From a virus (lineage: Duplodnaviria > Caudoviricetes), in the IMG/VR virus record IMGVR_UViG_3300032321_001491, positions 1-33,805 of that record: a stretch of 33,805 bases of DNA. The stretch is one strand, 5' to 3'. This document shows positions 1 to 32,353 of the stretch, piece after piece. The notes below the pieces were generated by a model. The model worked only from the letters and a program-made list of their open reading frames with translations, did no database searches and was not told where the DNA came from. The position numbers and the translations under genes are program-made. The stretch's first letter is position 1, and each line of letters begins with the position of its first letter.

Positions 1-37
1 AATAATATATAGCTGATATATCACATAGTACATAAGG

Positions 38-88
38 AAAACACCCATTTATAGGCTTATTTTAAGCTTATTTTTGGGTGTTTTTTTT
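38..88 (+). terminator. Probable intrinsic terminator/hairpin in AT-rich non-coding left edge
   Basis: AAAACACCCA...TGGGTGTTTT inverted repeat with inner ATAGGCTTA/TAAGCTTAT, followed by T8. Confidence 0.5.
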
Positions 89-520
89 GTCTTTTTTTCA
101 CTAATTAACTATATTTTTAATAGAAATACGACCAAAATGGTTAACAATTGGGTAAAAAAGCTCATAATTTGAGAAGGTTTTAGATTCCCCTATGTAAATA
201 TCCTATTACTGGATATCTATAAGAATAATACAAACATATTCCCCCTCTTTTAGTTTATATAGGGGCGTAATACTATAACCGATTGATGACCCAGAATATT
301 GACGGGTTGATACATAGATTTAGGAATAGTATAAGTGTTTGATTACACTGATGTAATCTGAGGCGATAGGTAGAGAGATAGGCTAAGTCTTTCCCAGCCC
401 ATTTGATTAACAAAAATAAAATGTGCGTAAACTTTTACCTTCCTCCCTTAGATAAGTATTTATCTATGAGATTTTGGAATACATTTTGAATGCCATATGT
501 AATTTGTTAGTTATGATTAG

Positions 521-633
521 AAATATGTAATAAAGTTAAGCGATAAATAAACTATTTTTTGCGGGTGTACAATAACAAATGCATTTCTTATTGGGACACC
601 CGCCATCTTTATGATTAGAAAATGTATATTAAA
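521..633 (-). repeat. Degenerate repeat unit 0 (no -10, no downstream ORF)
   Basis: AAATATGTAATAAA box 521-534, 43-nt GCGGGTGT...ACACCCGC hairpin 561-603 at the same spacing as other units, second box 621-633. Confidence 0.7.
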
Positions 634-658
634 AATGGTAAAGGTAAGCGTTTAGATA

Positions 659-698
659 GCTGGCGTTCATTGTGCTTTAGCACGGGATGAACGCCAGC
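659..698 (+). repeat. Second hairpin (opposite orientation of the GC-TTTA-GC cap)
   Basis: GCTGGCGTTCAT-tGTGC-TTTA-GCACggg-ATGAACGCCAGC; near-identical copy at 1284-1323. Confidence 0.8.
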
Positions 699-733
699 AA
701 AAAAGAAGCCCCGTACCGAAGTACGGGGCTTCT
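699..733 (-). terminator. Intrinsic terminator cassette 1
   Basis: AGAAGCCCCGTAC-TTCG-GTACGGGGCTTCT plus U-tract on minus strand. Confidence 0.9.
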
Positions 734-754
734 ACACGCCTTACGGGGTAAGGG

Positions 755-1060
755 TTACTTGCGCTTGCCTTTGGCAGGCTTGGCGAGTGAGACTACGCAA
801 CGCCCGTCTGTAGTCCATTGAACGGACACAGCGACATTGTTGCGCTCTGCAATGGTTTCAACACGACCACGATACTTAGCCTTGTGGTTTGTGTAATCCT
901 CATCGTTTGGATTACCCTGTGCGTCATCCCAAATGAATGCGTCACCCTCAACCTTTGGGTCAAGGCTAACAATCTCGGCTTGTAGTGTCTCATCGTGGAA
1001 CGCTTCACGCCCACGCTTGGACAGCATGCCTTGCAGGTCATTGAGGTTTATCTTTGCCAT
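755..1060 (-). CDS. Hypothetical protein, 101 aa, basic C-terminal tail; paralog of 1380-1691
   Basis: ORF with GGGAG SD; about 60% identical to the neighbour by manual alignment. Confidence 0.9.
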   Translation of the reverse strand: MAKINLNDLQGMLSKRGREAFHDETLQAEIVSLDPKVEGDAFIWDDAQGNPNDEDYTNHKAKYRGRVETIAERNNVAVSVQWTTDGRCVVSLAKPAKGKRK

Positions 1061-1123
1061 AGGTATTCTCCCATGTTCAACACTCGGTATGAGTGTGTCT
1101 CGGCGGTATTGCCTTTGACATAA

Positions 1124-1257
1124 ATAAACATACCATTATGGTAAAAATGTGTATTAAAGTGAGTTTCGTATTGGTACCCCAACAGCGGGTGTGCAATTGC
1201 ATCGCTGAAGCGCAATCGCACGCCCGCCATGTGTGCGGAATAGAAATTTGTACTAAA
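1124..1257 (-). promoter_or_regulatory. Repeat unit 1: box + hairpin + box/extended -10 promoter
   Basis: Minus strand TTTAATACACATTTTT-N-ATGGTATGTTTAT (1124-1158); hairpin 1185-1227. Confidence 0.85.
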
Positions 1258-1283
1258 AACAGGAGATATGAGTGTGCTACGGA

Positions 1284-1323
1284 GCTGGCGTTCATTGTGC
1301 TTCAGCACGGGAAGAACGCCAGC
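1284..1323 (+). repeat. Second hairpin, copy 2
   Basis: GCTGGCGTTC-attGTGC-TTCA-GCACgggaa-GAACGCCAGC. Confidence 0.8.
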
Positions 1324-1358
1324 AAAAAAAAGACCCCGTGCCGAAGCACGGGGTCTTT
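1324..1358 (-). terminator. Intrinsic terminator cassette 2
   Basis: AAAGACCCCGTGC-TTCG-GCACGGGGTCTTT plus U-tract. Confidence 0.9.
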
Positions 1359-1379
1359 CACTAACCGCAGGAGATGCGG

Positions 1380-1691
1380 TTACTTGCGCTTGCCCTTGCC
1401 CTTTGCAGGCTTGGCGAGCGAGATAACCATCTGACCAGTGGTGAGCCACTGCACGCTGATGGCTACGCCGTTCTTATCGGCTAGTCCCTCAGCACGCCCA
1501 CGCCACATTGCTTTGTGGTTCGTGTAGTCCTCGCTGGTTGGGTCTCCTTGACTGCCCTCGTAGATGGTTGCATCACCATCTATCGCTGGGTCAAGGCTCA
1601 TGATTTCAGCCTCAAGTTCAGGGTTGTCATACGGGGCTCGCCCACGAGATGATAACTGACCTTTGAGGTCGTTCAGGTTTACCTTTGGCAT
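1380..1691 (-). CDS. Hypothetical protein, 103 aa; paralog of 755-1060
   Basis: ORF with AAGGAG SD; shared EDYTNHKA and SLAKPAKGK motifs. Confidence 0.9.
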   Translation of the reverse strand: MPKVNLNDLKGQLSSRGRAPYDNPELEAEIMSLDPAIDGDATIYEGSQGDPTSEDYTNHKAMWRGRAEGLADKNGVAISVQWLTTGQMVISLAKPAKGKGKRK

Positions 1692-1754
1692 TGCTTATCT
1701 CCTTGGTTATACACACCGCAGTGTGTTGCCTCAGCCTAATCGCTTTGGCATGAG

Positions 1755-1882
1755 ATAACCATACCATTATGATAAAAATATGTATTAAAGGTAGTTGCGT
1801 ATTGGTACCCCAATGGCTGGAGTGCAAATCTTTTGCTAAAGCAGATCCGCACACCAGCGGCAGTGAGAGAATGTGTATTAAA
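1755..1882 (-). promoter_or_regulatory. Repeat unit 2
   Basis: Promoter 1755-1789, hairpin 1816-1858, second box 1870-1882. Confidence 0.85.
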
Positions 1883-1922
1883 CTTAACCAACATGGTCCA
1901 GGGGTGGAGCTGGTGTTCAGAC

Positions 1923-1956
1923 AAAAAAAACTCCCCCCGCCCGAAGGCGAGGGGAG
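1923..1956 (-). terminator. Intrinsic terminator cassette 3
   Basis: CTCCCCTCGCC-TTCG-GGCGGGGGGAG plus U8. Confidence 0.9.
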
Positions 1957-1971
1957 CGGGGGAAGGAACAA

Positions 1972-2238
1972 TCACTCTGGTTGGAAGAGTGTGAGGTAAT
2001 CCATTTCCTCAATGGAGCCCTGAACATCTGTGAACAGTTGCTCAATGTCGCTCAACTTGTCCTGCACTTCGCCAATGAACTCTTGGCGCAGGGCAACCTT
2101 CATGTCAATCACGATGCTGAGCATCTGAGCGTTCATTTCGCCTCTGGTGATGAGGTTGTCTTTCAGTTGCATGGCAACTTTGACAACATCTTCGTGGGCA
2201 ATTGTGAGCGCCCTTGGGTGTGGTGGTAGGTGTGTCAT
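1972..2238 (-). CDS. Hypothetical helical, acidic protein, 88 aa (start MTHLPP)
   Basis: AAGGAG SD before ATG at 2238; the longer ORF-track start lies in the promoter. Confidence 0.85.
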   Translation of the reverse strand: MTHLPPHPRALTIAHEDVVKVAMQLKDNLITRGEMNAQMLSIVIDMKVALRQEFIGEVQDKLSDIEQLFTDVQGSIEEMDYLTLFQPE

Positions 2239-2281
2239 TGCTTTCTCCTTGTCAAGGGGATAGGAAGTGTCCTTGACATCT

Positions 2282-2415
2282 ATAAACATACCATGTCATC
2301 AAAAATGTGTATTCAACGGCATTGAGACCCTGTACCCTTTTCGTTGTCGTACAAATTGTTTGGTAAACCCAATCCGCACGCCAACGATTTCAAGAGAGAG
2401 AGAGCGTACACTCAA
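2282..2415 (-). promoter_or_regulatory. Repeat unit 3
   Basis: Promoter 2282-2316, hairpin 2341-2387 with compensatory GG-TTTA-CC cap. Confidence 0.85.
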
Positions 2416-2457
2416 CATATTGGATATACCTTTGCTATGGCGCTGGTGTTTGGGCAC

Positions 2458-2493
2458 AAAAAAAACCCCCCAAGCCCGTAGGCTTGAGGGGTT
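2458..2493 (-). terminator. Intrinsic terminator cassette 4
   Basis: AACCCCTCAAGCC-TACG-GGCTTGGGGGGTT plus U-tract. Confidence 0.9.
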
Positions 2494-2509
2494 CGCTGGA
2501 GAAGCGACC

Positions 2510-2767
2510 TTATTTCTTGGTGATTACTGGCACTACGAGTTTGCCCTCGGCGTACCAAATCACACCAACTTTCTTTTTTCCTGCAAGGCTGAGGATACGA
2601 GCACGAACACGGTTTTTGTTGGCTATCGTGTTCGGTACTGCCCTTTGTGTTGCGACAATATCACAAGTGTCGCTCACTGCCTTGACGCACTTGGCAAGGT
2701 AATTATCATGAAACTTTGGTCGCCCACGCCTCATTACCTTGACCGAGCCTTTAGGTACTCTACGCAT
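2510..2767 (-). CDS. Hypothetical highly basic protein, 85 aa (start MRRVPK)
   Basis: AAGGAG SD; Arg/Lys-rich, contains RRGRPK (AT-hook-like). Confidence 0.85.
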   Translation of the reverse strand: MRRVPKGSVKVMRRGRPKFHDNYLAKCVKAVSDTCDIVATQRAVPNTIANKNRVRARILSLAGKKKVGVIWYAEGKLVVPVITKK

Positions 2768-2811
2768 TTGCTTTCTCCTTGCCAGCGGGGTTAGGATAAT
2801 CGCTGACATGA

Positions 2812-2944
2812 ATAAACATAACATATCATGAAAAATGTGTATTCAATGTAGTTGAGAGTGTGTACCCCTTCGGCTGGTGCACAAAGCTTTTGCTGAAGCA
2901 GCTCCGTACACCATTCTTTTTGTGTTGTGAGAATATGTATTAAA
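2812..2944 (-). promoter_or_regulatory. Repeat unit 4
   Basis: Promoter 2812-2846, hairpin 2875-2913, second box ending 2944. Confidence 0.85.
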
Positions 2945-2978
2945 GAAAGCATGCCAGGATACGCAATAGGGTCGGAGT

Positions 2979-3010
2979 TTCCCCCTCGCACCCGTAGGCA
3001 CGAGGGGGAA
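2979..3010 (-). terminator. Hairpin terminator cassette 5 (no U-tract on minus strand)
   Basis: TTCCCCCTCGTGCC-TACG-GGTGCGAGGGGGAA directly after the stop. Confidence 0.7.
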
Positions 3011-3013
3011 GTT

Positions 3014-3232
3014 TTATGCTGATTTTGGGAAATTGTACTCTGTCCTGATAGTCTCTATCAGCCTGTCAATTTCCGAGTCAAGGAAACGGTGTATCTTATT
3101 CAGCCTTGCCGAAGTCTCGGACATACCTAGATACCTGCACATTACACTTGCCAGCATGATTCTCTTGCGGGTCTTATCTAGTTCCCTAGATATTTGCAGA
3201 ACCGCCGTTTTGCATTGGTAACGCTTGTCCAT
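3014..3232 (-). CDS. Hypothetical protein, 72 aa (start MDKRYQ)
   Basis: TAATG overlap with upstream ORF, GGAGG SD. Confidence 0.8.
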   Translation of the reverse strand: MDKRYQCKTAVLQISRELDKTRKRIMLASVMCRYLGMSETSARLNKIHRFLDSEIDRLIETIRTEYNFPKSA

Positions 3233-3453
3233 TATTTCGCCTCCGCAAACATCTTGTCCCAACACTCTGAATGGTAGCCATTCATGAGTTGCTCACGCTG
3301 GGCTGGGGTAAGAGTAGGGAAACAATTCTGAATGAGTTCGCCCTGCCAACTAGCCGTCTTGCCAAACTCCCATTCATCACGGGTCATTTGGACCTCGCCC
3401 CAATGCCCACATTCGGGGCAAGTCGGGGTTTGAATAGTAACCATTATTTTCAT
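3232..3453 (-). CDS. Hypothetical Zn-binding protein, 73 aa (CPEC...HSEC)
   Basis: GGAG SD, CxxC and HxxC motifs. Confidence 0.85.
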   Translation of the reverse strand: MKIMVTIQTPTCPECGHWGEVQMTRDEWEFGKTASWQGELIQNCFPTLTPAQREQLMNGYHSECWDKMFAEAK

Positions 3454-3493
3454 TGCTATCTCCAATCTGTCCTAGCCCGTTGCTAGGAACAAG

Positions 3494-3626
3494 ATAACCA
3501 TACCATCTGATGGAAAATGTGTATTAAAGAGAGTTGATAGTGTGTACCCCATTGACTGGTGTACAAATCTTTCGCTGAAGCAGCTTCGCACACCACCGTT
3601 CTTGTGTGATGAGAATGTGTATTAAA
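3494..3626 (-). promoter_or_regulatory. Repeat unit 5
   Basis: Promoter 3494-3528, hairpin 3557-3595, second box ending 3626. Confidence 0.85.
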
Positions 3627-3666
3627 GATAAAGGGTATGGTCATGTGAGAACGCTGGTGTTTAGGC

Positions 3667-3703
3667 AAAAAAAAACCCCCCAAGCCTTTCGGCTCAGGGG
3701 GTT
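3667..3703 (-). terminator. Intrinsic terminator cassette 6
   Basis: AACCCCCTGAGCC-GAAA-GGCTTGGGGGGTT plus U-tract. Confidence 0.9.
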
Positions 3704-3728
3704 CGTTTGTTTGGGGGGTGATATGTGC

Positions 3729-3965
3729 TTAGGCTTGAGGTCGGGTGACGGTAATTCCCAATTCCTCAGCGAGGGCTTTGGCTTCTTGGTTCTTCTTGGC
3801 TATTGCTTCCTCGTAACCCTTGAGCATCATTGCCAAGCCCTGAATGCCTTTCGTGTTGCCCTGCTGGGTAGCACGGTTGAGTGCGCCTGCAACAACCATG
3901 AATTGTTGTTCCAGTGTCAGTCTTGCGACTGGGTGGTTTGGACTAACTTCTGTCCGCTTTTTCAT
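3729..3965 (-). CDS. Hypothetical helical protein, 78 aa
   Basis: GGGAG SD; ORF fills the space between promoter and terminator. Confidence 0.85.
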   Translation of the reverse strand: MKKRTEVSPNHPVARLTLEQQFMVVAGALNRATQQGNTKGIQGLAMMLKGYEEAIAKKNQEAKALAEELGITVTRPQA

Positions 3966-4008
3966 TGCTATCTCCCTGTCAAGGTGTTAGGGAGTGTCCT
4001 TGACATAG

Positions 4009-4140
4009 ATAACCATACCATCTGATTAAAAATGTGTATTCAACTTAGTTGACAGTGTGTACCCCACAAGCTGGCGTACAATGCTTTGGCTAAAGCAGCC
4101 TTGCACACCATCGCAAGGCGATAAAGAAATGTATATTAAA
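4009..4140 (-). promoter_or_regulatory. Repeat unit 6
   Basis: Promoter 4009-4043, hairpin 4072-4110, second box ending 4140. Confidence 0.85.
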
Positions 4141-4174
4141 AGAGAGACATGTGTAGGTGCTGAAGGGTCGGGGT

Positions 4175-4202
4175 TCTCCCCCCGCCCGTAGGCGAGGGGA
4201 GA
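4175..4202 (-). terminator. Hairpin terminator cassette 7 (no U-tract)
   Basis: TCTCCCCTCGCC-TACG-GGCGGGGGGAGA after the stop. Confidence 0.7.
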
Positions 4203-4207
4203 TGGTA

Positions 4208-4489
4208 TCACTCGTAGATACGATACCTGTCCTGTTGCTTCTCCAAGACATGAGCCTGACGGTACTTGTCAAACACTTCGCACCAAACTTTTGCGAGTGT
4301 CAATGAGCCTGCAACGAAGCGCTCTACCGAGTGCAACATTTTGCCGTTCTCATCAGTGACATAGCACCAAGCCATGTAGTTTCCAGAACCGTCAAAAGCC
4401 TTGTAGACTTCGTACATATGCCAATATGTCCAAGCGTACTCGGCAGTGCCGTTTCTTACCCACTTCATAGTGACTAAAGGAGTGGTCAT
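4208..4489 (-). CDS. Hypothetical aromatic-rich protein, 93 aa
   Basis: GAAAGGA SD; fills the cassette. Confidence 0.85.
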   Translation of the reverse strand: MTTPLVTMKWVRNGTAEYAWTYWHMYEVYKAFDGSGNYMAWCYVTDENGKMLHSVERFVAGSLTLAKVWCEVFDKYRQAHVLEKQQDRYRIYE

Positions 4490-4531
4490 GAGGTTATCCT
4501 TTCTATCGGGGTTAGGTGTGTTCCGATGTCA

Positions 4532-4665
4532 ATAACCATACCATGTGAGGAAAAATGTGTATTCAATCTCGTTCATGCTCTGATCCTCAACAGTTGGTGT
4601 GCAATTGCTATGCTGAAGCGCTCTTGCCCACCACCCGACCGAGTGTGTGTTGAGAGTGTATTAAA
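4532..4665 (-). promoter_or_regulatory. Repeat unit 7
   Basis: Promoter 4532-4566, hairpin 4595-4633, second box ending 4665. Confidence 0.85.
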
Positions 4666-4705
4666 AACTATTGGCATAGGCATGGAGTCGGGCGGGTGTT
4701 GAGAC

Positions 4706-4751
4706 AAAAAAAAGAACCCCAAGCGCCTCAGGGGGGAGGCACTTGGGGTTC
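4706..4751 (-). terminator. Intrinsic terminator cassette 8
   Basis: GAACCCCAAGTGCCTC...GAGGCGCTTGGGGTTC plus U8. Confidence 0.9.
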
Positions 4752-4765
4752 GGGTTAGGTGCTTG

Positions 4766-4849
4766 TTATAAGCCAACCACGCATTGGAATATCATCCAAG
4801 CGAGGCAAGCGAACACAATGTACGCACCAATTTCAGGCAGGCGCTTCAT
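4766..4849 (-). CDS. Small membrane peptide, 27 aa (MKRLPEIGAYIVFACLAWMIFQCVVGL); not in ORF track
   Basis: ATGA overlap with the upstream stop; single hydrophobic helix; ends just before the terminator. Confidence 0.65.
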   Translation of the reverse strand: MKRLPEIGAYIVFACLAWMIFQCVVGL

Positions 4850-5073
4850 TGAGATACCAGCCTGTATTCCAGCACCTCGTAGAAGTTACCTGACGGGTGA
4901 TACTGGGCATTGACGGTAATCTCAACGATACCACCGTCAAGTTTGAGCCTGAACACTTGGTATGCCCAAGTGTCGTCAACCTCAACGGGGATAGTGTTGG
5001 ATAGGATAAGGTTCAGTGCACGCTTGCCGAGCAAGGCACGCTGAGCCGTTTCGCTTGTGTCTATGGTAGCCAT
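4846..5073 (-). CDS. Hypothetical protein, 75 aa (start MATIDT)
   Basis: GAGGA SD before ATG at 5073. Confidence 0.85.
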   Translation of the reverse strand: MATIDTSETAQRALLGKRALNLILSNTIPVEVDDTWAYQVFRLKLDGGIVEITVNAQYHPSGNFYEVLEYRLVSQ

Positions 5074-5110
5074 AGTTTCCTCTCTGTCTCGGCGGGTTGC
5101 CTTGACTGAT

Positions 5111-5239
5111 ATAACCATACCATACGATAGAAAATGTGTATTCAACCTCGTTGATATGATGAACCCCATTGCCTGGTGTACAATTGCTTTGCTGAAGCGC
5201 CCTTGCCCACCATCGCATGTGTGAAGTGAGTGCATTCAA
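5111..5239 (-). promoter_or_regulatory. Repeat unit 8
   Basis: Promoter 5111-5145, hairpin 5174-5212, second box ending 5239. Confidence 0.85.
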
Positions 5240-5280
5240 AGAGAAGAAACTCCGTGTGCAGATGAGTCGGAGTTCAGGGC

Positions 5281-5324
5281 AAAAAAAAAGCCCCCAAGCC
5301 TCGGAGGGTGAGGCTTGAGGGCTT
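5281..5324 (-). terminator. Intrinsic terminator cassette 9
   Basis: AAGCCCTCAAGCCTC...GAGGCTTGGGGGCTT plus U-tract. Confidence 0.9.
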
Positions 5325-5341
5325 GTCGGGGCATTGAGTTA

Positions 5342-5629
5342 CTAGAACTCTATTGGTGCTTCAATTGCTGGTATCTGCACTGCGTTGCGATGTTCTTGCA
5401 TCGCACGCTGGTCGGCTTCCAAGCCGTACTGAATCATTTGCGCACGATGGTCGCAATCTTGCACCATGCGTGTCAGATGTTCAGCGGTTCGGTTCCAACC
5501 GCTTGCTCTGCAGTATGCGCTTGCGTTTGTGAAACGCAAAGCGGTGTTCTGCAGTTGCTCTACCAAGTTTGCAACCATTCGTGGAATGTTGTCTCGCTCG
5601 GTTTCGCTGGGTGTTTGATAATGTGCCAT
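5342..5629 (-). CDS. Hypothetical helical protein, 95 aa (start MAHYQT)
   Basis: GGAGGT SD before ATG at 5629. Confidence 0.85.
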   Translation of the reverse strand: MAHYQTPSETERDNIPRMVANLVEQLQNTALRFTNASAYCRASGWNRTAEHLTRMVQDCDHRAQMIQYGLEADQRAMQEHRNAVQIPAIEAPIEF

Positions 5630-5687
5630 GATGAACCTCCAGTTCATTTGTTGTTGGCGTTTGTGTTTATCGTTCACCCCGACAAGA

Positions 5688-5790
5688 ACAACCATACCAT
5701 CTGGAAGAAAATGTGTATTCAATCTTGTTCAAGCTCGCATCCCCAATCACTGGTGTACAATTCTTTTGCTGAAGCAGAATCGCACTCCAG
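5688..5790 (-). promoter_or_regulatory. Repeat unit 9 (first in transcription order)
   Basis: Promoter 5688-5722, hairpin 5750-5790. Confidence 0.85.
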
Positions 5791-5921
5791 CGATTGACCC
5801 TAGTCAACACAGGTATTTCGTATGCGGCTAAAAACAAAAGTAACATTCATAAAATATATACTCAAATTTTGGATAGGAAGGTTCAAGGCGGGTATAGGAG
5901 TATAAAAGTTTGGGGGAGAAT

Positions 5922-6011
5922 AAAAAAGACCGCTAGAGATGCACATGCCCCTGGGGGTTAAGCCCAGAGGCATCTGCACCTATAACGGTCCTAAGGTTAG
6001 CTTTCGCTGCC
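5922..6011 (-). ncRNA. Putative ~90-nt structured RNA with segment antisense to 23S rRNA
   Basis: TATACT -10 at 6018-6023, GAAA-tetraloop mini-hairpin, ~26-bp G-U-containing stem, U6 tail; 5980-5997 matches the 23S/I-CeuI site sequence. Confidence 0.6.
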
Positions 6012-6065
6012 TTTATCAGTATACACAGATACTAATTTGCGGGGTAGTAATAATGATTGGGTGTA

Positions 6066-6239
6066 TTACCGAGAGTTACGGTAGAAGCCATGACCTTTGA
6101 AGTTGATTCCTGGCGGGGAGAATAATTGTCTCAGAGGAAGGTCGCAGACTGGACACTTATCCTTAGAGAGCTCCTCAGTGACTTTCCTAGTCTCTTCGTA
6201 GATGTGCTGGTTATTACAGATGTATTCATATGTTGGCAT
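6066..6239 (-). CDS. FmdB-family zinc-ribbon protein, 57 aa
   Basis: MPTYEYxC...H...CPxC...FKGxGFY signature; leaderless after TGaTATACT. Confidence 0.85.
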   Translation of the reverse strand: MPTYEYICNNQHIYEETRKVTEELSKDKCPVCDLPLRQLFSPPGINFKGHGFYRNSR

Positions 6240-6304
6240 GTTTACCAGTATATCATGGCGAACAACAGTTAGTACTTTTCGTGCCACTCGTGCTAACATA
6301 GAGC

Positions 6305-6901
6305 GTGTCTACTGATTACAATATGTGGCTAAGAGCCGCTCATGACCACCTGTGGGTGTTTGACAAGCTGATTGTCGCAAAGAAGGCAGGTCATGTGTGC
6401 GGTCCAAGGGGTATGCCCGTTCCAAAACCCAATTTTTATATGGTGAGACCAATTTCCAACTTTGAGGGAATGGGTCTTGGAGCTCGCAAGGTCTGGTTGG
6501 AAGATTCTACGCTTGAATTACACCCTGGAGAGTTCTGGTGTGAGTTCTTTACTGGGGATCACATTAGCGTTGATTACCGCCTGTACGATCCTGTGTTGAT
6601 TGTTAAAGGTACTCCACACCCAAATGCACCCCACTCTAAATTTATAAAATGGGAGAAGCTAGAAACACCGATCCCACAACCTGCCATGTTGGGCAAGATA
6701 CCACTCTATTACAAGACAATCAACTGTGAGTTTATTGGTGGTAAGTTAATTGAGATACATTTACGAGGCAATCCTGATTTTATCTATGGCAATAGCATTG
6801 CAATACCTGTGTGGGAAGGTGAAAAAATTAATCCACCGCAATCAATGAGATTTGTGGAAGCTAAAGACATCAATAGAATTGGGTTTTATATAGACAATTA
6901 A
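6305..6901 (+). CDS. Conserved phage hypothetical protein (possible ATP-grasp-like fold)
   Basis: 198-aa ORF, GTG start after TGcTAACAT; VRP..N..GMG, EFF.G.H.SVD and NCEFIGGKLIEIHLR motifs. Confidence 0.7.
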   Translation: MSTDYNMWLRAAHDHLWVFDKLIVAKKAGHVCGPRGMPVPKPNFYMVRPISNFEGMGLGARKVWLEDSTLELHPGEFWCEFFTGDHISVDYRLYDPVLIVKGTPHPNAPHSKFIKWEKLETPIPQPAMLGKIPLYYKTINCEFIGGKLIEIHLRGNPDFIYGNSIAIPVWEGEKINPPQSMRFVEAKDINRIGFYIDN

Positions 6902-6919
6902 TATATGATACAATTAAGC

Positions 6920-7324
6920 ATGTACGAATATCATGTAAAGAAAGTTTTAAAAGTAGTAGACGGAGACACTATAGATGTGGACATTGATCTGGGGTTTAAT
7001 ATCTCGTATACTCAAAGAGTCCGACTCGCTGGAATTGACACGCCTGAGTCACGCACCAAGGATGCCAAGGAAAAAGCATTAGGGCTTGAAGTCAAAGAGA
7101 AGCTCAAGAAAGCTATTGATGCCGCCAAAGATGTGGTGGTCAAAACCGAGCTTCCCGATAGCTCCGAGAAATACGGGCGCATCTTGGGCTGGGTATATCT
7201 GGATGGAGCCGCCAAGTCAATCAACGAGCAACTCATTGACGAGGGTTACGCTTGGGGATACATGGGCGAGACCAAGGTTAAGGACTTTGACGCTCTTTTG
7301 AAGAAGCGGCAAGCGAACAAGTAA
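6920..7324 (+). CDS. Thermonuclease (SNase) family nuclease
   Basis: KVVDGDTI, VRLAGIDTPE, KYGRILG, LIDEGYA motifs; leaderless start MYEY after TGaTACAAT. Confidence 0.92.
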   Translation: MYEYHVKKVLKVVDGDTIDVDIDLGFNISYTQRVRLAGIDTPESRTKDAKEKALGLEVKEKLKKAIDAAKDVVVKTELPDSSEKYGRILGWVYLDGAAKSINEQLIDEGYAWGYMGETKVKDFDALLKKRQANK

Positions 7325-7499: not shown

Positions 7500-7684
7500 T
7501 CCATCCCCTTGAATTCAGGAAAATATTTTTCAACAGCCCTTTCCCGACTAATCCCAAAATCAGCACACCACTGTTTAAGTAAACCATTGGCGATATCCCG
7601 CCATCTATCCCGTTCCGCCTCCAGCTGCTTGATTTCGTTAAAAGTCTCTTTGTCCATTTTAATTATTCTATTTTTATCCATCAC
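7496..7684 (-). CDS. Hypothetical protein, ~62 aa
   Basis: Coupled to both flanking ORFs; contains the LEAERDRWR coiled motif common in phage proteins. Confidence 0.7.
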   Translation of the reverse strand: MMDKNRIIKMDKETFNEIKQLEAERDRWRDIANGLLKQWCADFGISRERAVEKYFPEFKGME

Positions 7685-8238
7685 AATACTTTAAAGTCTA
7701 CATTAAGTATAAACCTAAATGGATTCTTAACAGGATTAGACGCAGCGTGGATTTGGCTACCATCAAAAATTACAGCACGACCTTTTTTCGGATAAACCTC
7801 ATCAGTGACTCTGTATGACTCATCAAAGAAATATGTGGGACCATCTGATGGGTTAATATAGTAAAGCAAAACTTTATGATTAACTGGATCTCCATTATCA
7901 TACTGAAGATCAATGTGAGGAACTTGATGCTCATAGTTCATCATTGGTGGATAGGGAAAAGTCAAATTCACTTTAGCCCTGATCAACTCAATTTTGCCAA
8001 ATTCAATTTCAAGTTTTTTTGTAAACTTCCTGATAACTGGAAGATGTGGTGATGCTTTATCTGATTCTGATTCGTAAAGATGATGTGACATCTGCAGCGG
8101 AGCATGTGTCCACCTTTGCGCTACCTCGCTTGAGAAGCGATGGCTACGAAACAAACGATAAGGAAAATTTTCAGTACTGACATATTCCTCAAAGTCCTCC
8201 TGTTCTTGTTGTGTAATGAAGTTGTCTATAATTTTCAT
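7681..8238 (-). CDS. 2OG-Fe(II) oxygenase (start MKIIDNF)
   Basis: PHID...LLYYINPSDGPT...HAASNP...R; the ORF-track N-terminal extension is the tRNA. Confidence 0.88.
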   Translation of the reverse strand: MKIIDNFITQQEQEDFEEYVSTENFPYRLFRSHRFSSEVAQRWTHAPLQMSHHLYESESDKASPHLPVIRKFTKKLEIEFGKIELIRAKVNLTFPYPPMMNYEHQVPHIDLQYDNGDPVNHKVLLYYINPSDGPTYFFDESYRVTDEVYPKKGRAVIFDGSQIHAASNPVKNPFRFILNVDFKVL

Positions 8239-8313
8239 GGCTGGCGAGGTAGGGCTTGAACCTACGACCCAGGGATTAACAGTCCCTTGCTCTGCCAACT
8301 GAGCTACTCGCCA
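8238..8313 (-). tRNA. tRNA-Asn (GTT), encoded CCA
   Basis: TGGCGAG acceptor, GCTCAGTTGGCAGAGC D arm, AGGGA-CTGTTAA-TCCCT, GTAGG-TTCAAGC-CCTAC, GCCA end; 76 nt. Confidence 0.96.
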
Positions 8314-8322
8314 TCGTACTAC

Positions 8323-8403
8323 TTACTTTAGCAGCAAAATAGCAATTGTGATTGCATGAAGCGTAAAATAAATTGCGTGTGTAATTTTATCTTGTTTTGA
8401 CAC
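8323..8403 (-). CDS. Small hydrophobic peptide, 26 aa (MSKQDKITHAIYFTLHAITIAILLLK); not in ORF track
   Basis: GTG start with GAAAGGA SD; fills the gap between oxygenase and tRNA. Confidence 0.55.
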   Translation of the reverse strand: MSKQDKITHAIYFTLHAITIAILLLK

Positions 8404-8405
8404 TT

Positions 8406-9074
8406 TTATCCTTTCTTAATTGGAGTATTCCAAACTTCAATTAAATTTTGTTTTTTTCTTTCTAAATCTTCTGGAGTATTGTAACTAGGAAATGTCCCTG
8501 GATTTTTTTCAATTGGGAGCATAAAGTTTGAATATGCGTAACGAATGCCAGATGTGACTTCCTTTACGCCATGCTCACAATCGGTATGAGCCCCATGAAT
8601 AACAAGATCTCCTGGCTGCACTGCATATTCTAAACCTAGCCTTGGGTAGTATGTTTCACCACCAGTAAATTCTCCAAAATAAACAACTAGCCCATAATGA
8701 ATAATACAGCAAGTATTCCATCTATCAAGCTGAGTCAACTCCTCTTCCATCCCCTCGCCTGGGCTATCTTGGTGCAAAAACATTCCACCATCTCCAGGTC
8801 TAATGACTTGAAGAGCCAGATTGGGATGAATTATATATTCTGGAGCAATCAAATCGCTTGCTGAATTCCATATGTCAATTAAATGAGGGATAAGCGGGGT
8901 AGTCTTATCTCTATACCAATCAACTTTTGCATACTGTTCTCTTAAATAAGTTTTTTCTTTTGTATATTCTTTAATAACTATATTAATTTGTTCAACTTTT
9001 TCTTTTGGTATAAAATTTTTATAAACAAAAACTTTATCTGCTAGTTTTGTAATGCCTGGGTGGTCAAAGAACAT
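8406..9074 (-). CDS. 2OG-Fe(II) oxygenase, prolyl-4-hydroxylase-like
   Basis: HQD...FTGGETYYP...PGDLVIH...HGVKEVTSGIRY. Confidence 0.9.
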   Translation of the reverse strand: MFFDHPGITKLADKVFVYKNFIPKEKVEQINIVIKEYTKEKTYLREQYAKVDWYRDKTTPLIPHLIDIWNSASDLIAPEYIIHPNLALQVIRPGDGGMFLHQDSPGEGMEEELTQLDRWNTCCIIHYGLVVYFGEFTGGETYYPRLGLEYAVQPGDLVIHGAHTDCEHGVKEVTSGIRYAYSNFMLPIEKNPGTFPSYNTPEDLERKKQNLIEVWNTPIKKG

Positions 9075-9086
9075 GTATGTATTATA

Positions 9087-9851
9087 TCAGATATCTATAT
9101 CTTCTGGTCTTAAGGCTCTACCTGTACGAGATTCGTGTTCTTTTATGTGATTATACAAATCAAAATCTAATTTATGTAAATCACAAATTTCATCATAAAA
9201 ATTATTAAATACACTCATTGAGTCTAGTTTAAATGGATTATCATTTACTTTTATTTCTTCATTAAGAATGATTGATTTATTTTTTAAATTTGTTAACTCT
9301 TCACTCATATCTCTCAAAAGATATTTTCTATTATCTAATGTTGATAATGTAAAATTATTTTTTTTAATTTCTTTTAATAAATCACTAAAAGACAAATTTC
9401 CTTTTTTAATAGACACACTGCTATCTTCATCTGATGTCCACTCAAGTGGTTGCGTTAAATAATCTGATTGAATGTTTGGTCTACCATCAAATCCAAGAGA
9501 AGATATTGATGGATTGTTGTATTTGCAATAATCATAAAGAACATCTTTAAAAGGTTTTCTCCAAGTAATAGGTCTTTGAGAAAAACTAAAAGAACTAATC
9601 AATCTATCTATTGGGTTCCTGACAATACTAAAACTTTTAATTCCTGGAAATTTTTCTATTGGTGTTGTGCCAAAGTGTCCTCTAATAAAATCATCATCTT
9701 TTCTTTTATTTAAAAAACAATCAAAAACTTCCTCACCCATCTGTTCAGCTGAGGTTAAATTTCTGACATACTTAATATCATTCTGATAATGATCCAATGC
9801 AGCCTCAACTGAGCTACCAGATGTTTTTGGAATATGGCAAAAGTAAATCAT
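9087..9851 (-). CDS. Sulfotransferase family 2 protein
   Basis: FCHIPKTSGSS (5'-PSB) and VRNPIDRLISSF (3'-PB) motifs. Confidence 0.85.
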   Translation of the reverse strand: MIYFCHIPKTSGSSVEAALDHYQNDIKYVRNLTSAEQMGEEVFDCFLNKRKDDDFIRGHFGTTPIEKFPGIKSFSIVRNPIDRLISSFSFSQRPITWRKPFKDVLYDYCKYNNPSISSLGFDGRPNIQSDYLTQPLEWTSDEDSSVSIKKGNLSFSDLLKEIKKNNFTLSTLDNRKYLLRDMSEELTNLKNKSIILNEEIKVNDNPFKLDSMSVFNNFYDEICDLHKLDFDLYNHIKEHESRTGRALRPEDIDI

Positions 9852-9853
9852 AG

Positions 9854-9925
9854 AGCCCCCTCTCGGACTTGAACCGAGGACCGCTTCATTACAAGTGAAG
9901 TGCTCTACCGCTGAGCTAAAGGGGC
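9854..9925 (-). tRNA. tRNA-Thr (TGT), no encoded CCA (CTA follows)
   Basis: GCCCCTT acceptor, CTTCA-CTTGTAA-TGAAG anticodon arm, CTCGG-TTCAAGT-CCGAG T arm. Confidence 0.95.
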
Positions 9926-9926
9926 G

Positions 9927-10523
9927 TTAAACATATTTAATTAAACTAGACAGAGCGTATTTTACCACACCAGTTTGAGCACCAATAATACCACCAATTA
10001 GTGTATATTTTTGTAATAAATTATCAATAATTCTCCTATTGTCAGCAGAGTGATATTCAATTAAAAACACTTCTGGCTCAAAGGTCATTGACTTAAGTAT
10101 TTCAATTTCAGCACCCTCGGTATCAATTTTTACAATATTTGCCTTAGGAAGTAGCTCTCCAGACATTACATCAACAATTTCAGTTTTATCAGTTTGCTCT
10201 ACGCCTTTGTAAAAAGAACATTCACCAATATTGTTAAGACCATAAAACATTTCTTTTTTTTCATTCTTAGATCCTACAGCTACATTTATTGCAAAGATAT
10301 TATCAATGTCTTTTATATTTTTCTTTAAGAGATCAAAATTATTTTTAATTGGTTCGTATGAATAGATAGTTGCGTTTTTCCATTTATTACTTGCCCAAAT
10401 TGCAAAACCGCCAATATTTCCACCAATATCTAGAATAATAGGCTTTGGGTGATTGTATGGAATATCGTATTCTCCATTGTTAATTTTTTCAATATGTTTC
10501 ACCATGTTTTCTGGTATTTCCAT
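9927..10523 (-). CDS. FkbM-family SAM methyltransferase
   Basis: ILDIGGNIG, YEP, KIDTEGAE, IEYH motifs. Confidence 0.9.
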   Translation of the reverse strand: MEIPENMVKHIEKINNGEYDIPYNHPKPIILDIGGNIGGFAIWASNKWKNATIYSYEPIKNNFDLLKKNIKDIDNIFAINVAVGSKNEKKEMFYGLNNIGECSFYKGVEQTDKTEIVDVMSGELLPKANIVKIDTEGAEIEILKSMTFEPEVFLIEYHSADNRRIIDNLLQKYTLIGGIIGAQTGVVKYALSSLIKYV

Positions 10524-10562
10524 TATTTACACCTCTCGTGTTTTTATTAATAAATTTTTATT

Positions 10563-11354
10563 TTAATTAATTATTCCATTATGTTTTTTTACAAAATTAT
10601 GAACTAAATAAAATTTAGGGTCATTTGGATGTTCTCTTAATAAAATATCTGTAACTCCAATTTTTTTTAGTTCTAACATTTTTTGTTTAATTTCTTCTTC
10701 TGTTCCAAAAATTGTCCAATTTTTTTGATGTTTCAAAGGAAGTCTATCTACAAATTCCTTTGCTTCCTCATGTGAATCTGACATTGTAACAGCAGCGCAA
10801 ACCATTCTATTTTTATTTTTCTTAAAATTATCAGGATTTTCTAAATAATTGTTCATCATTGATAAATTATAATTTGCAAAACAAGAAGCGGAGTTTAAAG
10901 TTTTTTCAGATGTTCCAGACATAATAATTTCAGGAATATCTTCTATAGAAAGCAATGAAAGCATTTTCTTCATCCATTCATAAGTATAATCAATTCTTTT
11001 CTCAACAGTATTAAAATATTCTTTATTAAGAATAATATTATTAACAGATGACTCCCAGGGCTGAAGGTCTCCAGCTACTATATTAAACATTATTCTATTT
11101 TTTTGAATTTGATTAAAAGCTTTATACATCATAGTAAAATATTCTGGAGAAAGAGCATAGGTTCGTATTGCTAAAGAATATTTAAATTTATGTTTTAAAT
11201 TTATTGTATTTGCACATTTTATCCAAACATCACTCAGTAAAGAATCATAAGTTAATAAAACAGAATAATAATGACATGCGTCTGCAATTTCTGCTATTTT
11301 TTTAAAATCATCTATACTTTCATTTGAGTGTGCATACATCCAATGAATTTTCAT
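10563..11354 (-). CDS. Luciferase-like (LLM class) flavin monooxygenase
   Basis: YYSVLL, LAIRTYALSP, RIMFNIVAG, IFGTEEEI...LKKIGVTDILL pattern. Confidence 0.75.
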   Translation of the reverse strand: MKIHWMYAHSNESIDDFKKIAEIADACHYYSVLLTYDSLLSDVWIKCANTINLKHKFKYSLAIRTYALSPEYFTMMYKAFNQIQKNRIMFNIVAGDLQPWESSVNNIILNKEYFNTVEKRIDYTYEWMKKMLSLLSIEDIPEIIMSGTSEKTLNSASCFANYNLSMMNNYLENPDNFKKNKNRMVCAAVTMSDSHEEAKEFVDRLPLKHQKNWTIFGTEEEIKQKMLELKKIGVTDILLREHPNDPKFYLVHNFVKKHNGIIN

Positions 11355-21190: not shown

Positions 21191-23569
21191 ATGTCAGATT
21201 TTAATATTTCATTCCCAATTGATATGATTAAGAGGGAACAACGCATTGTTGTAGGCATCGCTACAGCCGACAATGTTGATAAAGCTGGCGATATTGTGGA
21301 CTTTGAAGCATCCAAAGAAGCTTTTGCAAACTGGGGTGGAAACATCCGAGAGATGCATGCTCCTATTGCCGTTGGTAAGGCAATTAATTATGAGCCAGTC
21401 GTGCTTAAAGATAAAGATGGTGTATCTTATAATGCTTTTAAAGTTGAAGCTTATATTTCAAAAGGTGCAGAAGATACTTGGCAAAAAGTTCTTGATGGCA
21501 CACTTCGTTCTTTTTCTATTGGCGGTAAAGTAATTGAAAAATCTGAATCCGCAGATAAATTTTTTCATGGTAAGCCAGTTAATGTTATTAAAAAATATGT
21601 TCTTGGAGAGCTAAGCCTCGTTGATAACCCAGCAAACGCTTTGGCTATTATTGATATTATTAAAATGGATGGAGAAGGGTTGTTTAAGTATGCTCTTGAT
21701 TGCGACTTAGATTGCCAGTTAGCAAAGGCTAAACAACCGCTCAAAGACCCCAAAGGCGGGCTGACTGCTGCAGGTAGAAGGCATTTTAAACAAACTGAAG
21801 GTGCTAATCTTAAGCCAGGCGTTAAAGGTGCAGCCGACACTCCAGAAAAAATGCGCCGCAAAGGTTCATTCCTTACAAGATTTTTTACCAACCCGTCTGG
21901 TCCAATGAAAAAACCAAATGGTGAACCAACACGCCTTGCGCTTTCAGCAGCAGCATGGGGTGAACCTGTTCCTCAGAATGCATCAGATGCTGCAAAGCTT
22001 GCTGCTAAAGGCAGAAGACTTCTTGAGAGATATGCAAATACTAAAGAAAAAGCAGATTTTGAAAATTCATTTGAAGACGCTCTTCTTGAAGAAATTATTG
22101 ATCTTTTGAAAGATGATGATTGTGATTGTGGGTGTGGTGGTCTTGAAAAAGATGCATCAGTTACAACTGACAACGCTGAATCAAAAAATCCATCAAGAAA
22201 TGGAATCATTTCACCAACTGTTCCTCCATTCCCATCTGGTTCGCCAAAATTTAAACCAAAGAAAAAAATAAAAAAAGAAGGAAGTCCATGTTGGGATGGC
22301 TATCACCAAGAAGGTGAAAAGAAAGGTAAGAATGGAAATATGGTTCCAAACTGTGTTCCTGATAATACTAACAAAAAGGAGAAAGACATGAAAGGACAAG
22401 ATCTTATTAACAAAGCAACAGGTCTCGTTCCAACCCTCCAGGAGTTGTTGGCAAACACAGTTGTGTTTTATTTTGCAGCCCACAGAGCACATTGGAATGT
22501 TGAGGGCGTTGATTTTACAGAATACCACGAATTATTTGCAAAAATTTATGAAGATGCTTATGGATCAATTGACCCAATGGCTGAGCTTATTAGAAAAATG
22601 GGAGCATTCCCGCCATCGCTAGACGAATCAGATGACATGTCCAGTATTGAAGATGATTCAGCAACATCAGATTCTAGAGAACTTGCTATTGATCTTTATG
22701 TAAAAAATCATGGTTTGATCACAATGCTCAAAGCCGCATTTAATGTAGCAAACTCGGAAAATGAACAAGGTGTTGCTAATTTTATTGCAGAAAGAATTGA
22801 TATGCATCAAACATGGGATTGGCAATTGACAGCTTCTTTAAGAGCATCTGGTGTAGAAATCCCATCACTCATTGAAGATACTGATGAGACTGACATGGAA
22901 AATGCTGGGAGTATTATGAATTTGATTAATCAAGTTTTTGCTAATTCAACAAAATCATATGATTCAACACAAAATATTGAAGAATTTGATACAATTAGTA
23001 AAATGAACGAAAACGAAGAAGTTATTATTAAGCAAGACTCTGAATTGCAATTAAATAATACTTATGATAAGCTCTCTGACATGAATGAGCAACAAGTCAA
23101 TAAACTTAATCTTTTGAAGAAGTTTGTTGGTTGGTTGTTCCAAGATGTCGCAGAAACAACTTCAACTTCCGTTGAAGTAAGTGGAAACACACAGGAGGAA
23201 GAAATGGACATTAATGTTCTTAAAGATGCTCTGAGTGCTGTTGTTGATGAAAAACTGGCTAGTTTTGCTACTTCAATCAAGGAAGAAGTTGAAGCCTCTG
23301 TTCAGGAAAAAATTGAAGCAGTCGCAAAGGGTTTTGAGGTTCAGAGTTCTGAACTTCAACAAAAGCTGGAAACAGCAGAGTTGGCTCTCGCTGAGCAAAC
23401 AGAAAAAGTTGAGGCATTTGCCGCAGCTGGTGCTGTAAAAAAGAGCGTGGACCCAGAAGATGATGAGGAAGTAGCAGAGGAAGCACTAGCTAAGTCTGCA
23501 CCTACTTCATTCTGGAGAAATACATATCTGCCACAGGAGTTAATCAACTCCCTAGGTTATAGGTCATAA
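21191..23569 (+). CDS. Prohead protease fused to DUF6321-like domain, Dps/ferritin domain and C-terminal scaffold
   Basis: N-terminal IREMH...FSIGG...ELSLVDNPAN; KDPKGGLTAAGR; HWNVEG..F...HELF...YE...D..AE.I (Dps); acidic coiled-coil C-terminus; lies just before the capsid gene. Confidence 0.88.
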   Translation: MSDFNISFPIDMIKREQRIVVGIATADNVDKAGDIVDFEASKEAFANWGGNIREMHAPIAVGKAINYEPVVLKDKDGVSYNAFKVEAYISKGAEDTWQKVLDGTLRSFSIGGKVIEKSESADKFFHGKPVNVIKKYVLGELSLVDNPANALAIIDIIKMDGEGLFKYALDCDLDCQLAKAKQPLKDPKGGLTAAGRRHFKQTEGANLKPGVKGAADTPEKMRRKGSFLTRFFTNPSGPMKKPNGEPTRLALSAAAWGEPVPQNASDAAKLAAKGRRLLERYANTKEKADFENSFEDALLEEIIDLLKDDDCDCGCGGLEKDASVTTDNAESKNPSRNGIISPTVPPFPSGSPKFKPKKKIKKEGSPCWDGYHQEGEKKGKNGNMVPNCVPDNTNKKEKDMKGQDLINKATGLVPTLQELLANTVVFYFAAHRAHWNVEGVDFTEYHELFAKIYEDAYGSIDPMAELIRKMGAFPPSLDESDDMSSIEDDSATSDSRELAIDLYVKNHGLITMLKAAFNVANSENEQGVANFIAERIDMHQTWDWQLTASLRASGVEIPSLIEDTDETDMENAGSIMNLINQVFANSTKSYDSTQNIEEFDTISKMNENEEVIIKQDSELQLNNTYDKLSDMNEQQVNKLNLLKKFVGWLFQDVAETTSTSVEVSGNTQEEEMDINVLKDALSAVVDEKLASFATSIKEEVEASVQEKIEAVAKGFEVQSSELQQKLETAELALAEQTEKVEAFAAAGAVKKSVDPEDDEEVAEEALAKSAPTSFWRNTYLPQELINSLGYRS
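23045..23073 (+). promoter_or_regulatory. Internal promoter inside the protease gene
   Basis: TTGCAA-N17-TAAGCT with TG extension; in-frame ATG 7 nt later (23081). Confidence 0.55.
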
Positions 23570-29972: not shown

Positions 29973-30024
29973 GTTACCGTTCTTTATGTTATAATCAGTC
30001 TATCACAATAGACAAAAGGATTTT

Positions 30025-30777: not shown

Positions 30778-30780
30778 TAT

Positions 30781-32341: not shown

Positions 32342-32353
32342 TATAATAACACT

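Follow-up and report, generated by a model that had tools for sequence, protein, structure and literature searches.

A probably recombining array of small-gene cassettes in an actinobacterial-siphovirus-related phage, built on a repeated scaffold of hairpin and predicted promoter

Introduction

In the T4-type phages RB49/phi1, PST and nt-1, ORFans are flanked by promoter-early stem-loops (PeSLs), elements of ~100 bp that supply promoter, terminator and Shine-Dalgarno (SD) sequences (PMC2839356, PMC4122927). Recombination between PeSLs deletes or swaps genes at varying points (between the -10 and the ATG, between the SD and the -10, or in the loop), and no dedicated recombinase was found (PMC2839356). 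A related arrangement is described here from a freshwater virus of the Caudoviricetes (Duplodnaviria), IMG/VR record IMGVR_UViG_3300032321_001491, of which positions 1 to 33,805 were analysed as one stretch (the window). Near its left end lies an array of nine minus-strand cassettes, each with one or two small open reading frames (ORFs) behind a conserved hairpin and a predicted promoter. The array is interpreted as a series of self-contained small-gene units, likely early and homologously recombining, in which the hairpin is a likely DNA-level site of promoter control; we assign this reading a probability of about 0.62.

Integrons are arrays of unrelated small genes separated by strand-specific imperfect attC hairpins. 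In the host-takeover module of SPO1 and the tre region of phage K, both in a terminal repeat, strong early promoters recur ahead of small genes of unknown function, and we know of no fixed-distance covarying hairpin or tandem bipartite scaffold in either of them. The original prediction for this locus, made from the sequence alone, compared it with an integron and with these early regions, and recognised no described system with its scaffold. That last statement was too strong because PeSL cassettes, as far as the accessible text describes them, follow the same logic (PMC2839356), and for the same reason the array alone is unsurprising. What does stand is that a literature search, with most subscription papers and the supplements outside its scope, found no description of this particular scaffold.

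The likeness to PeSLs comprises a repeated intergenic early promoter, a terminator-type stem-loop and an SD ahead of ORFans (here in nine units), indels and swaps between elements at variable points (here from -25 to +79), and the lack of dedicated recombinase families (here 0/5 related records). The differences, drawn against the available PeSL descriptions, lie in the scaffold. PeSLs have consensus sigma70 -35 and -10 hexamers with AT-rich sequence upstream, whereas here AATACA stands at -35 and a GC-rich hairpin lies upstream. The PeSL stem-loop is itself the terminator and takes five variable positions, whereas here the terminator is separate and a second, covarying hairpin keeps a fixed distance of 33 nt. 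Moreover, about 50 PeSLs are spread over the hyperplastic regions of each T4-type genome, whereas here 39/39 scaffold matches are confined to single arrays, in a phage related to actinobacterial siphoviruses. Unlike PeSLs, the array is also built on a tandem motif-box unit. It works like a PeSL array without being a strict member of that class, and it is not an integron.

Architecture of the array

Coordinates are those of the window (Table 1). The array reads on the minus strand, so that upstream means higher numbers, and the cassettes are lettered A to I in the order of transcription; "anchor" denotes the first A of AATACACATT. The promoter pattern AATACAYATTTT-N7-ATGKTATGKTT has nine minus-strand matches with 0 mismatches, as had been predicted, and none in 100 shuffled sequences even when two mismatches are allowed. 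Nine copies of a gap-free 102-nt repeat family lie 515-682 nt apart. Each unit opens with the hairpin and the box, followed by a TG-extended TANNNT hexamer, a short leader and an SD-like site, and then by one or two ORFs (11 in the nine cassettes) and a GC hairpin; the predicted hairpins, SD-like sequences and small ORFs are all present. The array is also GC-richer, as expected, at 48.2% against 36.5% in the rest of the window.

Other parts of the original prediction stood only in part. Nine GC terminator-type hairpins provide each cassette with a candidate terminator of its own, but a T-run follows only 7/9, those after C and E lacking it. The scaffold spacing, described as free of indels, is constant in the window only between the hairpin and the -10; the distance between upstream box and promoter box varies from 93 to 99 nt, and that between anchor and start codon from 69 to 95 nt. 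The cargo, described as unrelated save for one pair of paralogs, does include the pair H and I (60% identical; hereafter the H/I family), but the family has a weak third member in F (hhalign probability 65%, E 5.9e-5). The description of the units had also missed the 5' leader stems predicted in 9/9 units, a second motif and box half-site upstream of the hairpin, inverted hairpins after H and I, and a terminal element. The variant hairpin of this terminal element is kept at the array end in the window and in seven relatives among the arrays listed. A conserved AT-rich non-coding stretch follows the terminal element. In one relative, a cassette (L051:4989-5200) has a leader of ~150 nt holding extra predicted stems ahead of its ORF.

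Cassette turnover

Pattern and protein scans recovered 20 further array-bearing sequences (21 with the window), several of which are partial or near-identical. Four of the 14 metagenome loci (L015, L017, L027 and L028), being single matches without a hairpin, were excluded before counting, as were L003 and L053, near-duplicates of L004 and L054; the near-duplicate pairs L031/L037 and L051/L052 were kept in the counts.

These relatives keep the scaffold with different cargo and order, and so bear out the prediction that cassettes are gained, lost and shuffled. Measured against the window order A B C D E F G H I, two relatives lack A, two others lack E and one lacks F (Table 1), a gene of the family of e2 (the second ORF of cassette E) occupies the G slot in L020, and three relatives place G ahead of E and F. 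Cassettes foreign to the window occur in L013, L035, L051 and L058, and 5/7 cassettes of L051 are unmatched in the other arrays. Contigs from independent sequencing runs show the same kinds of change: loss of F (joint from 2252 to 2783 in an X2 contig), the G-before-E order (run X17), and replacements bounded by ORF ends in A, in C and in the second ORF of E. A static early-promoter region, whose gene content and order were identical from one relative to the next, would agree with the order of common cassettes preserved among close relatives and with the constant last place of H/I. However, it is refuted by the whole-cassette losses, the new cassettes and the G/E/F order change, and we regard it as practically excluded.

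Four crossovers could be placed relative to the anchor. The loss of E maps to -25..-6 (67/70 diagnostic sites fit), the L020 exchange to +23..+32 (76/83), the loss of F to +59..+79 (119/120) and the loss of A to about -3..+35, where the best pair of parents fits 84/96 sites and a closer, incomplete parent matches to ~+19. The four intervals have no base in common and 0/4 fall in the hairpin (-72..-30), contrary to the predicted breakpoints at a fixed repeat position. No single breakpoint emerged from five comparisons across types or from one of a scaffold swap. No clean one-unit circle was present in the contigs of eight runs, a form of data that drops rare forms; the joints that appear to go back are explained in X17 by the G-before-E order and in X9 by an allele that maps to a sister scaffold.

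These junctions bear on an integron-like or HUH-driven process, in which a dedicated enzyme would recognise the folded hairpin and move cassettes at a fixed site. The strand-specific bulged hairpin, the inverted copies bracketing the H/I genes and the true changes of order would suit such a process. The integron reading fails, however, because the junction intervals are scattered and no integrase, resolvase or Y1 gene was found in the five related records, one of them estimated to be 100% complete: PF00589, PF01797 and PF00239, which cover the tyrosine, serine and Y1 families, have matches in 0/5 (PF00589 control, 14/14), as has PF04542, in a search that covered phage-encoded enzymes and not a host enzyme acting in trans. 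Several swaps are, moreover, bounded by ORF ends or leaders, and unlike integron cassettes each unit has a predicted promoter and terminator of its own and no fixed crossover. IS200/IS605 or REP-RAYT systems, which use a Y1 HUH enzyme, differ in the same way (PF01797 in 0/5 records, scattered junctions). A dedicated enzyme is thus very improbable and the integron analogy is dropped. RecA is encoded in 3/5 related records, and the complete record has RecA, RuvC, SSB and two exonucleases; turnover by this phage kit, or by microhomology, is the strongly favoured explanation.

The conserved hairpin and its tandem spacing

The foot of the hairpin lies 33 nt before the anchor of the promoter box in 86/90 distinct copies, and the TANNNT hexamer begins 23 or 24 nt past the anchor in 90/90, which places the anchor at the -35 position. 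A second box lies ~92-102 nt upstream at most junctions, and in 40/44 well-scoring junctions (88 examined) an ACNCC motif ends exactly 33 nt before this upstream box. The 33-nt spacing is therefore used twice, the junction being a motif-33-box unit in tandem with a -10 on the second copy only. This motif-33-box pattern has 39 matches in five records, all within arrays and co-oriented, and 0 in the control. Resemblances to the T4 MotA box, HAIR, CIRCE, the LexA box, dif and attC cores were judged by eye and rejected, their spacing being wrong or not kept across lineages.

In an alignment of 53 distinct hairpins 85.1% of cells are paired, as against 27-46% in slid controls. Double changes fill 64 cells where 21 were expected, a value reached in 0/500 shuffles, and they preserve pairing at 8/13 pairs; pair-count measures of covariation are weaker (76/500 and 44/500 shuffles). 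Pairing is strand-specific: on the top strand the stems hold 100 G-T against nine A-C combinations. The copies counted in these tests are related and not independent of one another, which inflates the values. The top strand folds better in 77/86 copies with DNA energies, and pairing on the mRNA-sense strand is favoured in 80/86 with RNA energies, in a folding-energy test that is not fully calibrated since a leader-hairpin control showed no strand preference.

Conservation of this kind might also be expected of a duplex operator that never folds, whose dyad symmetry would be read by a dimeric factor (a phage WhiB, a MerR-type helix-turn-helix (HTH) protein or a host regulator) together with the GAAT-N4-ATTY box. 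Invariant G and C positions in both arms, the tolerated mismatches and the fixed box spacing are consistent with an operator; the complete relative encodes two WhiB proteins and one MerR-type HTH protein, and in the cluster BE phage Jay2Jay a short motif stands 37 nt before the -10 at 5/17 sites. However, an operator would not call for double changes that keep pairing at 8/13 pairs, nor for stems that allow G-T while A-C is nearly absent. Scaffold type also differs between near-identical backgrounds, in a comparison made without their WhiB and HTH genes. An operator of this kind is accordingly judged unlikely.

A second possibility is that the hairpin of the same recombining array is an RNA element in read-through transcripts, serving processing, stability, pausing or protein binding, and able to switch by forming an alternative helix with the post-terminator segment. 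The mRNA-sense preference, the 2/9 terminators without a T-run and an RNA contig reaching 35 nt beyond a terminator point in this direction. So does the significant complementarity between the upstream, post-terminator motif and the 5' side of the hairpin at 25/50 non-H/I junctions, as against 0/8 after H/I. However, an RNA element gives no evident reason for an exact 33-nt spacing to a DNA promoter box, or for the same spacing at a box without a -10; its alternative helix prefers the opposite strand with RNA energies (39/44) and neither strand with DNA energies, and the copies after H/I are inverted. This alternative is therefore given about one chance in five.

A DNA-level role is favoured because the distance to the box is fixed, the geometry is repeated at a box without a -10, and inverted copies occur. 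We lean slightly towards a hairpin that acts on DNA: it would extrude on the non-template strand, ~70-105 nt ahead of the start, and be read with the -35 box, switching the promoters on or off jointly. There are precedents for structured promoters. The early promoters of N4 depend on DNA hairpins with some bases fixed, others conserved only as pairs, and strand asymmetry, but the accessible text places a short hairpin on the template strand near -11, where the virion RNA polymerase acts (PMC4496689), unlike the distant non-template hairpin here. No RNA polymerase family was found among 101 scanned proteins of the complete relative, and the 4375-aa protein is a tape measure protein (L059:4812-17939, in a 109-kb relative). 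Frpo single-stranded DNA promoters, according to the part of the source available, fold so that -35 and -10 become double-stranded (PMC11541004), whereas the boxes here are direct repeats outside the stem and no reverse-complement box was found in the array.

Inverted copies of the hairpin, each with the loop of its own lineage, follow the terminators of the terminal H/I genes only, and one follows the last gene in 8/8 arrays listed. The loop is of the TTYA type in 56 of 128 elements, of the GNNTA type in 67 and of neither in five, and the types are mixed in 0/21 arrays. Loop type does not track the background: identity is 95% over 6.3 kb upstream between L004 and L032, and 94% upstream and 89% downstream between L013 and L054, but the two members of each pair have different types. 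Across loop types the alleles of B, C and E are 96-100% identical, whereas those of H/I reach 57% or less.

The H/I family and other cargo

Each of five searched records carries two or three H/I genes, all at the array end. Searches found 85 homologs, none of them with a known name or domain, as well as 44 cluster representatives. An RG dipeptide is common to all of 84 sequences, and R18 to almost all. The AT-hook of Lsr2 has an RGR core (PMC8612146), and no Lsr2 Pfam match was found in H/I. The predicted model of protein I (pLDDT 83) has 0 Foldseek matches in the PDB at E<=0.001, one uncharacterised phage protein in BFVD, and only unnamed clusters, under 0.9, in the Atlas. The H/I proteins are putative nucleic-acid binders. 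The e2 protein was considered as a further H/I paralog and rejected (probability 0.8%). Five longer proteins (P0087, P0093, P0097, P0104 and P0106) end in one or two H/I-like domains. The seven H/I proteins of the TTYA type group in a single clade (100/97), whereas F mixes types. That H/I proteins read the hairpin, so that scaffold type and H/I travel as a matched block, is a tentative suggestion.

None of the cargo ORFs has a match above cut-off in Pfam, PHROGs or NCBIfam, the best being phrog_20898, of unknown function, and the cassette E ORF matches only unnamed viral clusters in the Atlas. Alleles of cassette C (4208-4489; L004, L024, L025, L026 and L037) diverge but retain their last ~12 residues. 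To judge by its sequence, this gene looks as if it were swapped at the conserved 3' end and hypervariable in the manner of a host-interaction protein. Whether the cargo as a whole consists of candidate host-takeover or anti-defence functions we put at even odds.

Expression and genomic context

Metatranscriptome contigs from two studies lie, among the matches listed, inside the predicted transcripts (Table 1), which the tool rates as a weak hint. In the same set, the upstream ends of the contigs of five cassettes fall 13-19 nt below the predicted starts, and that of D 43 nt below; predicted starts are placed by rule 7 nt past the hexamer, which puts them near 1120, 1751, 2278, 2808, 3490, 4005, 4528, 5107 and 5684. 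None of these contigs crosses a promoter-proximal hairpin, which is not proof that the hairpins are untranscribed. DNA carry-over is possible in metatranscriptome contigs. The contigs weakly suggest single-cassette transcripts, in line with the predicted independence of the units, and they carry no timing information.

The window encodes portal, protease, capsid and class II ribonucleotide reductase (RNR). The host is likely to be actinobacterial because WhiB is encoded in 4/5 related records and the best cultured matches of the capsid are Streptomyces phages (53-54%, closest to BE-type). Neither protein I nor the array DNA has a match among 50,697 GenBank phage records (0 matches). The left end of Jay2Jay (KM652554.1) shares the order of small leftward genes, glycosyltransferase, RNR, portal, protease and capsid. 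The position of the array therefore corresponds to the terminal repeat of Jay2Jay, a direct repeat that spans the first 10.8 kb and contains 20-25 genes, most of them unknown (PMC5764925). By this synteny with BE phages the array is probably expressed early and situated within or close to a long terminal repeat, and a layout matching the terminal-repeat end of those phages agrees with the early region that had been predicted.

The Jay2Jay repeat resembles the array in that hairpin and promoter-like units recur in its intergenic gaps, with a sequence unrelated to the scaffold here. Seventeen TAGA(C/G)T -10-like sites occur in it (L065:897-10466), many behind a terminator and a short GTCC-GGAC palindrome. 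The spacing of the upstream motif is loose (37 nt at 5/17 sites), as against the fixed 33 nt here, the repeat carries an Lsr2-like gene, and neither shared scaffold sequence nor an H/I gene was found in Jay2Jay. The genome paper gives no description of these repeats (PMC5764925).

Just upstream of the array, a long hairpin with a T-run (Table 1) is possibly a small RNA. It is preceded by a TG-TATACT-like hexamer (region to 6015) and is conserved in relatives, marking the 5' boundary of the array; in the most distant lineage it retains its first 15 nt, with the remainder re-paired. A 29-nt piece of it occurs exactly in seven viral contigs. An Rfam scan of positions 1-7000 gave 21 matches, all under the gathering score.

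Elsewhere in the window, the prohead protease (21191-23569) holds inserted DUF6321 and ferritin-like domains, with 792 aa against 607 aa in a relative. Blocks 7681-11354 and 28523-33629 carry 2OG-Fe(II) oxygenase-like, sulfotransferase, FkbM methyltransferase and luciferase-like genes, and the former block is lower in GC and mostly missing from L003/L004. In L013 (first 320 nt, minus strand) and L054:3001-3075 a small ORF, ferredoxin-like by eye, lies on the opposite strand adjoining an FmdB zinc-ribbon gene. Several contigs stop 0.9-1.3 kb beyond the last promoter, where a genome end or origin is possible.

Table 1. Features of the array and its surroundings in window coordinates (higher numbers upstream on the minus strand).
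Feature	Position (nt)	Strand	Remarks
Promoter blocks	1126-1155, 1757-1786, 2284-2313, 2814-2843, 3496-3525, 4011-4040, 4534-4563, 5113-5142, 5690-5719	-	pattern match
Long hairpin with T-run	5922..5991	-	fold z -6.0; just upstream of array
Scaffold A	5691..5791	-	hairpin 5749-5791, box 5707-5722, extended -10 TG-TATGGT 5691-5696
Cassette A ORF, 95 aa	5342..5629	-	absent in L004/L019; RNA contig starts 5671
Scaffold B	5114..5275	-	motif and box half-site 1, hairpin 5172-5214, promoter box, -10; T-run 5281-5289 directly upstream
Cassette B ORF, 75 aa	4846..5073	-	85-100% identity between alleles of different scaffold types
Cassette B second ORF, 27 aa, hydrophobic	4766..4849	-	
Scaffold C	4535..4701	-	hairpin 4593-4635; T-run 4706-4713
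Cassette C ORF, 93 aa	4208..4489	-	strongly variable alleles, common C-terminal end
Scaffold D	4012..4176	-	hairpin 4070-4112; upstream GC hairpin ~4176-4201 without T-run
Cassette D ORF, 78 aa	3729..3965	-	
Scaffold E	3497..3662	-	hairpin 3555-3597; T-run 3667-3675
Cassette E ORF, 73 aa, CxxC	3232..3453	-	absent in L022/L026; phrog_20898 (unknown function) E 1.2e-6
Cassette E second ORF (e2), 72 aa	3014..3232	-	unrelated ORF instead in most relatives
Scaffold F	2815..2980	-	hairpin 2873-2915; upstream GC hairpin ~2982-3007 without T-run
Cassette F ORF, 85 aa, distant H/I paralog with RGR	2510..2767	-	missing from L025 and from X2 and X3 contigs
Scaffold G	2285..2451	-	hairpin 2343-2385, atypical loop; T-run 2458-2465
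Cassette G ORF, 88 aa	1972..2238	-	precedes E in L032, L035, L037
Scaffold H	1758..1918	-	hairpin 1816-1858; T-run 1923-1930
Cassette H ORF, 103 aa, H/I family	1380..1691	-	60% identical to I
Inverted hairpin copy directly after H terminator (T-run 1324-1331)	1284..1323	+	arm doubles as half-site 1 motif
Scaffold I	1127..1293	-	hairpin 1185-1227
Cassette I ORF, 101 aa, H/I family	755..1060	-	small alpha/beta fold (predicted), invariant RG(R)
Inverted hairpin copy after I terminator (T-run 699-704)	659..698	+	
Terminal element	519..633	-	box 618-633, longer variant hairpin 561-604, degenerate box 519-534, without -10
RNA contigs	I 756-1103, 745-1103; F 2520-2795, 2520-2763; H 1518-1732; E 3317-3471; D 3778-3962; A from 5671		among matches listed

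Discussion

In the proposed mechanism, a host sigma factor would read the extended -10 of each unit, and each unit would give a short, leader-protected transcript, with terminators insulating its neighbours. The shared 100-150 bp of scaffold and leader would let recombination drop, add or swap units without breaking them. A wider proposal, which we consider speculative, is that the array is a lineage-specific expression platform, in which H/I proteins would read the hairpin and the box three helical turns away and so drive or time all the promoters. The inverted copies would then provide feedback, and the cargo would be free to change while loop type and H/I stay matched like lock and key.

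Several observations weigh against the interpretation of the array as recombining early units under hairpin control. Hairpin extrusion, protein binding and promoter activity are predictions from sequence, and the -35 position reads AATACA, which is not a canonical hexamer. Two stem positions are unpaired in about half of the copies, which also fits an operator read as sequence, and the G-T bias is equally compatible with an RNA hairpin. The RNA contig that reaches 35 nt beyond a terminator (X19 record 21) does not fit full insulation of the units, and four junctions are a small sample. The H/I fold matches give no function (VIA, best Z 5.0), and the association of H/I with loop type would trace to one TTYA origin; since this is a single evolutionary event, linkage alone would be sufficient for the match. 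Finally, a contig of run X1 extends 568 nt beyond window position 1, and no end or coverage step was mapped.

Compared with PeSLs as the available sources describe them, the scaffold is the more exact, a covarying, strand-specific hairpin being kept at 33 nt from a box even in lineages with little else in common. The present analysis adds the tandem 33-nt geometry, the strand specificity of the hairpin, the non-mixing types tied to H/I, the synteny with a terminal repeat and a hint from RNA. Through the motif, at least 20 families of small proteins of unknown function can be picked out as candidates to be screened for host takeover or anti-defence activity, an approach with a precedent in PMC11065993. 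If the hairpin is truly a DNA-structure control site for a promoter of the host RNA polymerase, it would represent a new mode of early-gene control in actinobacterial phages.

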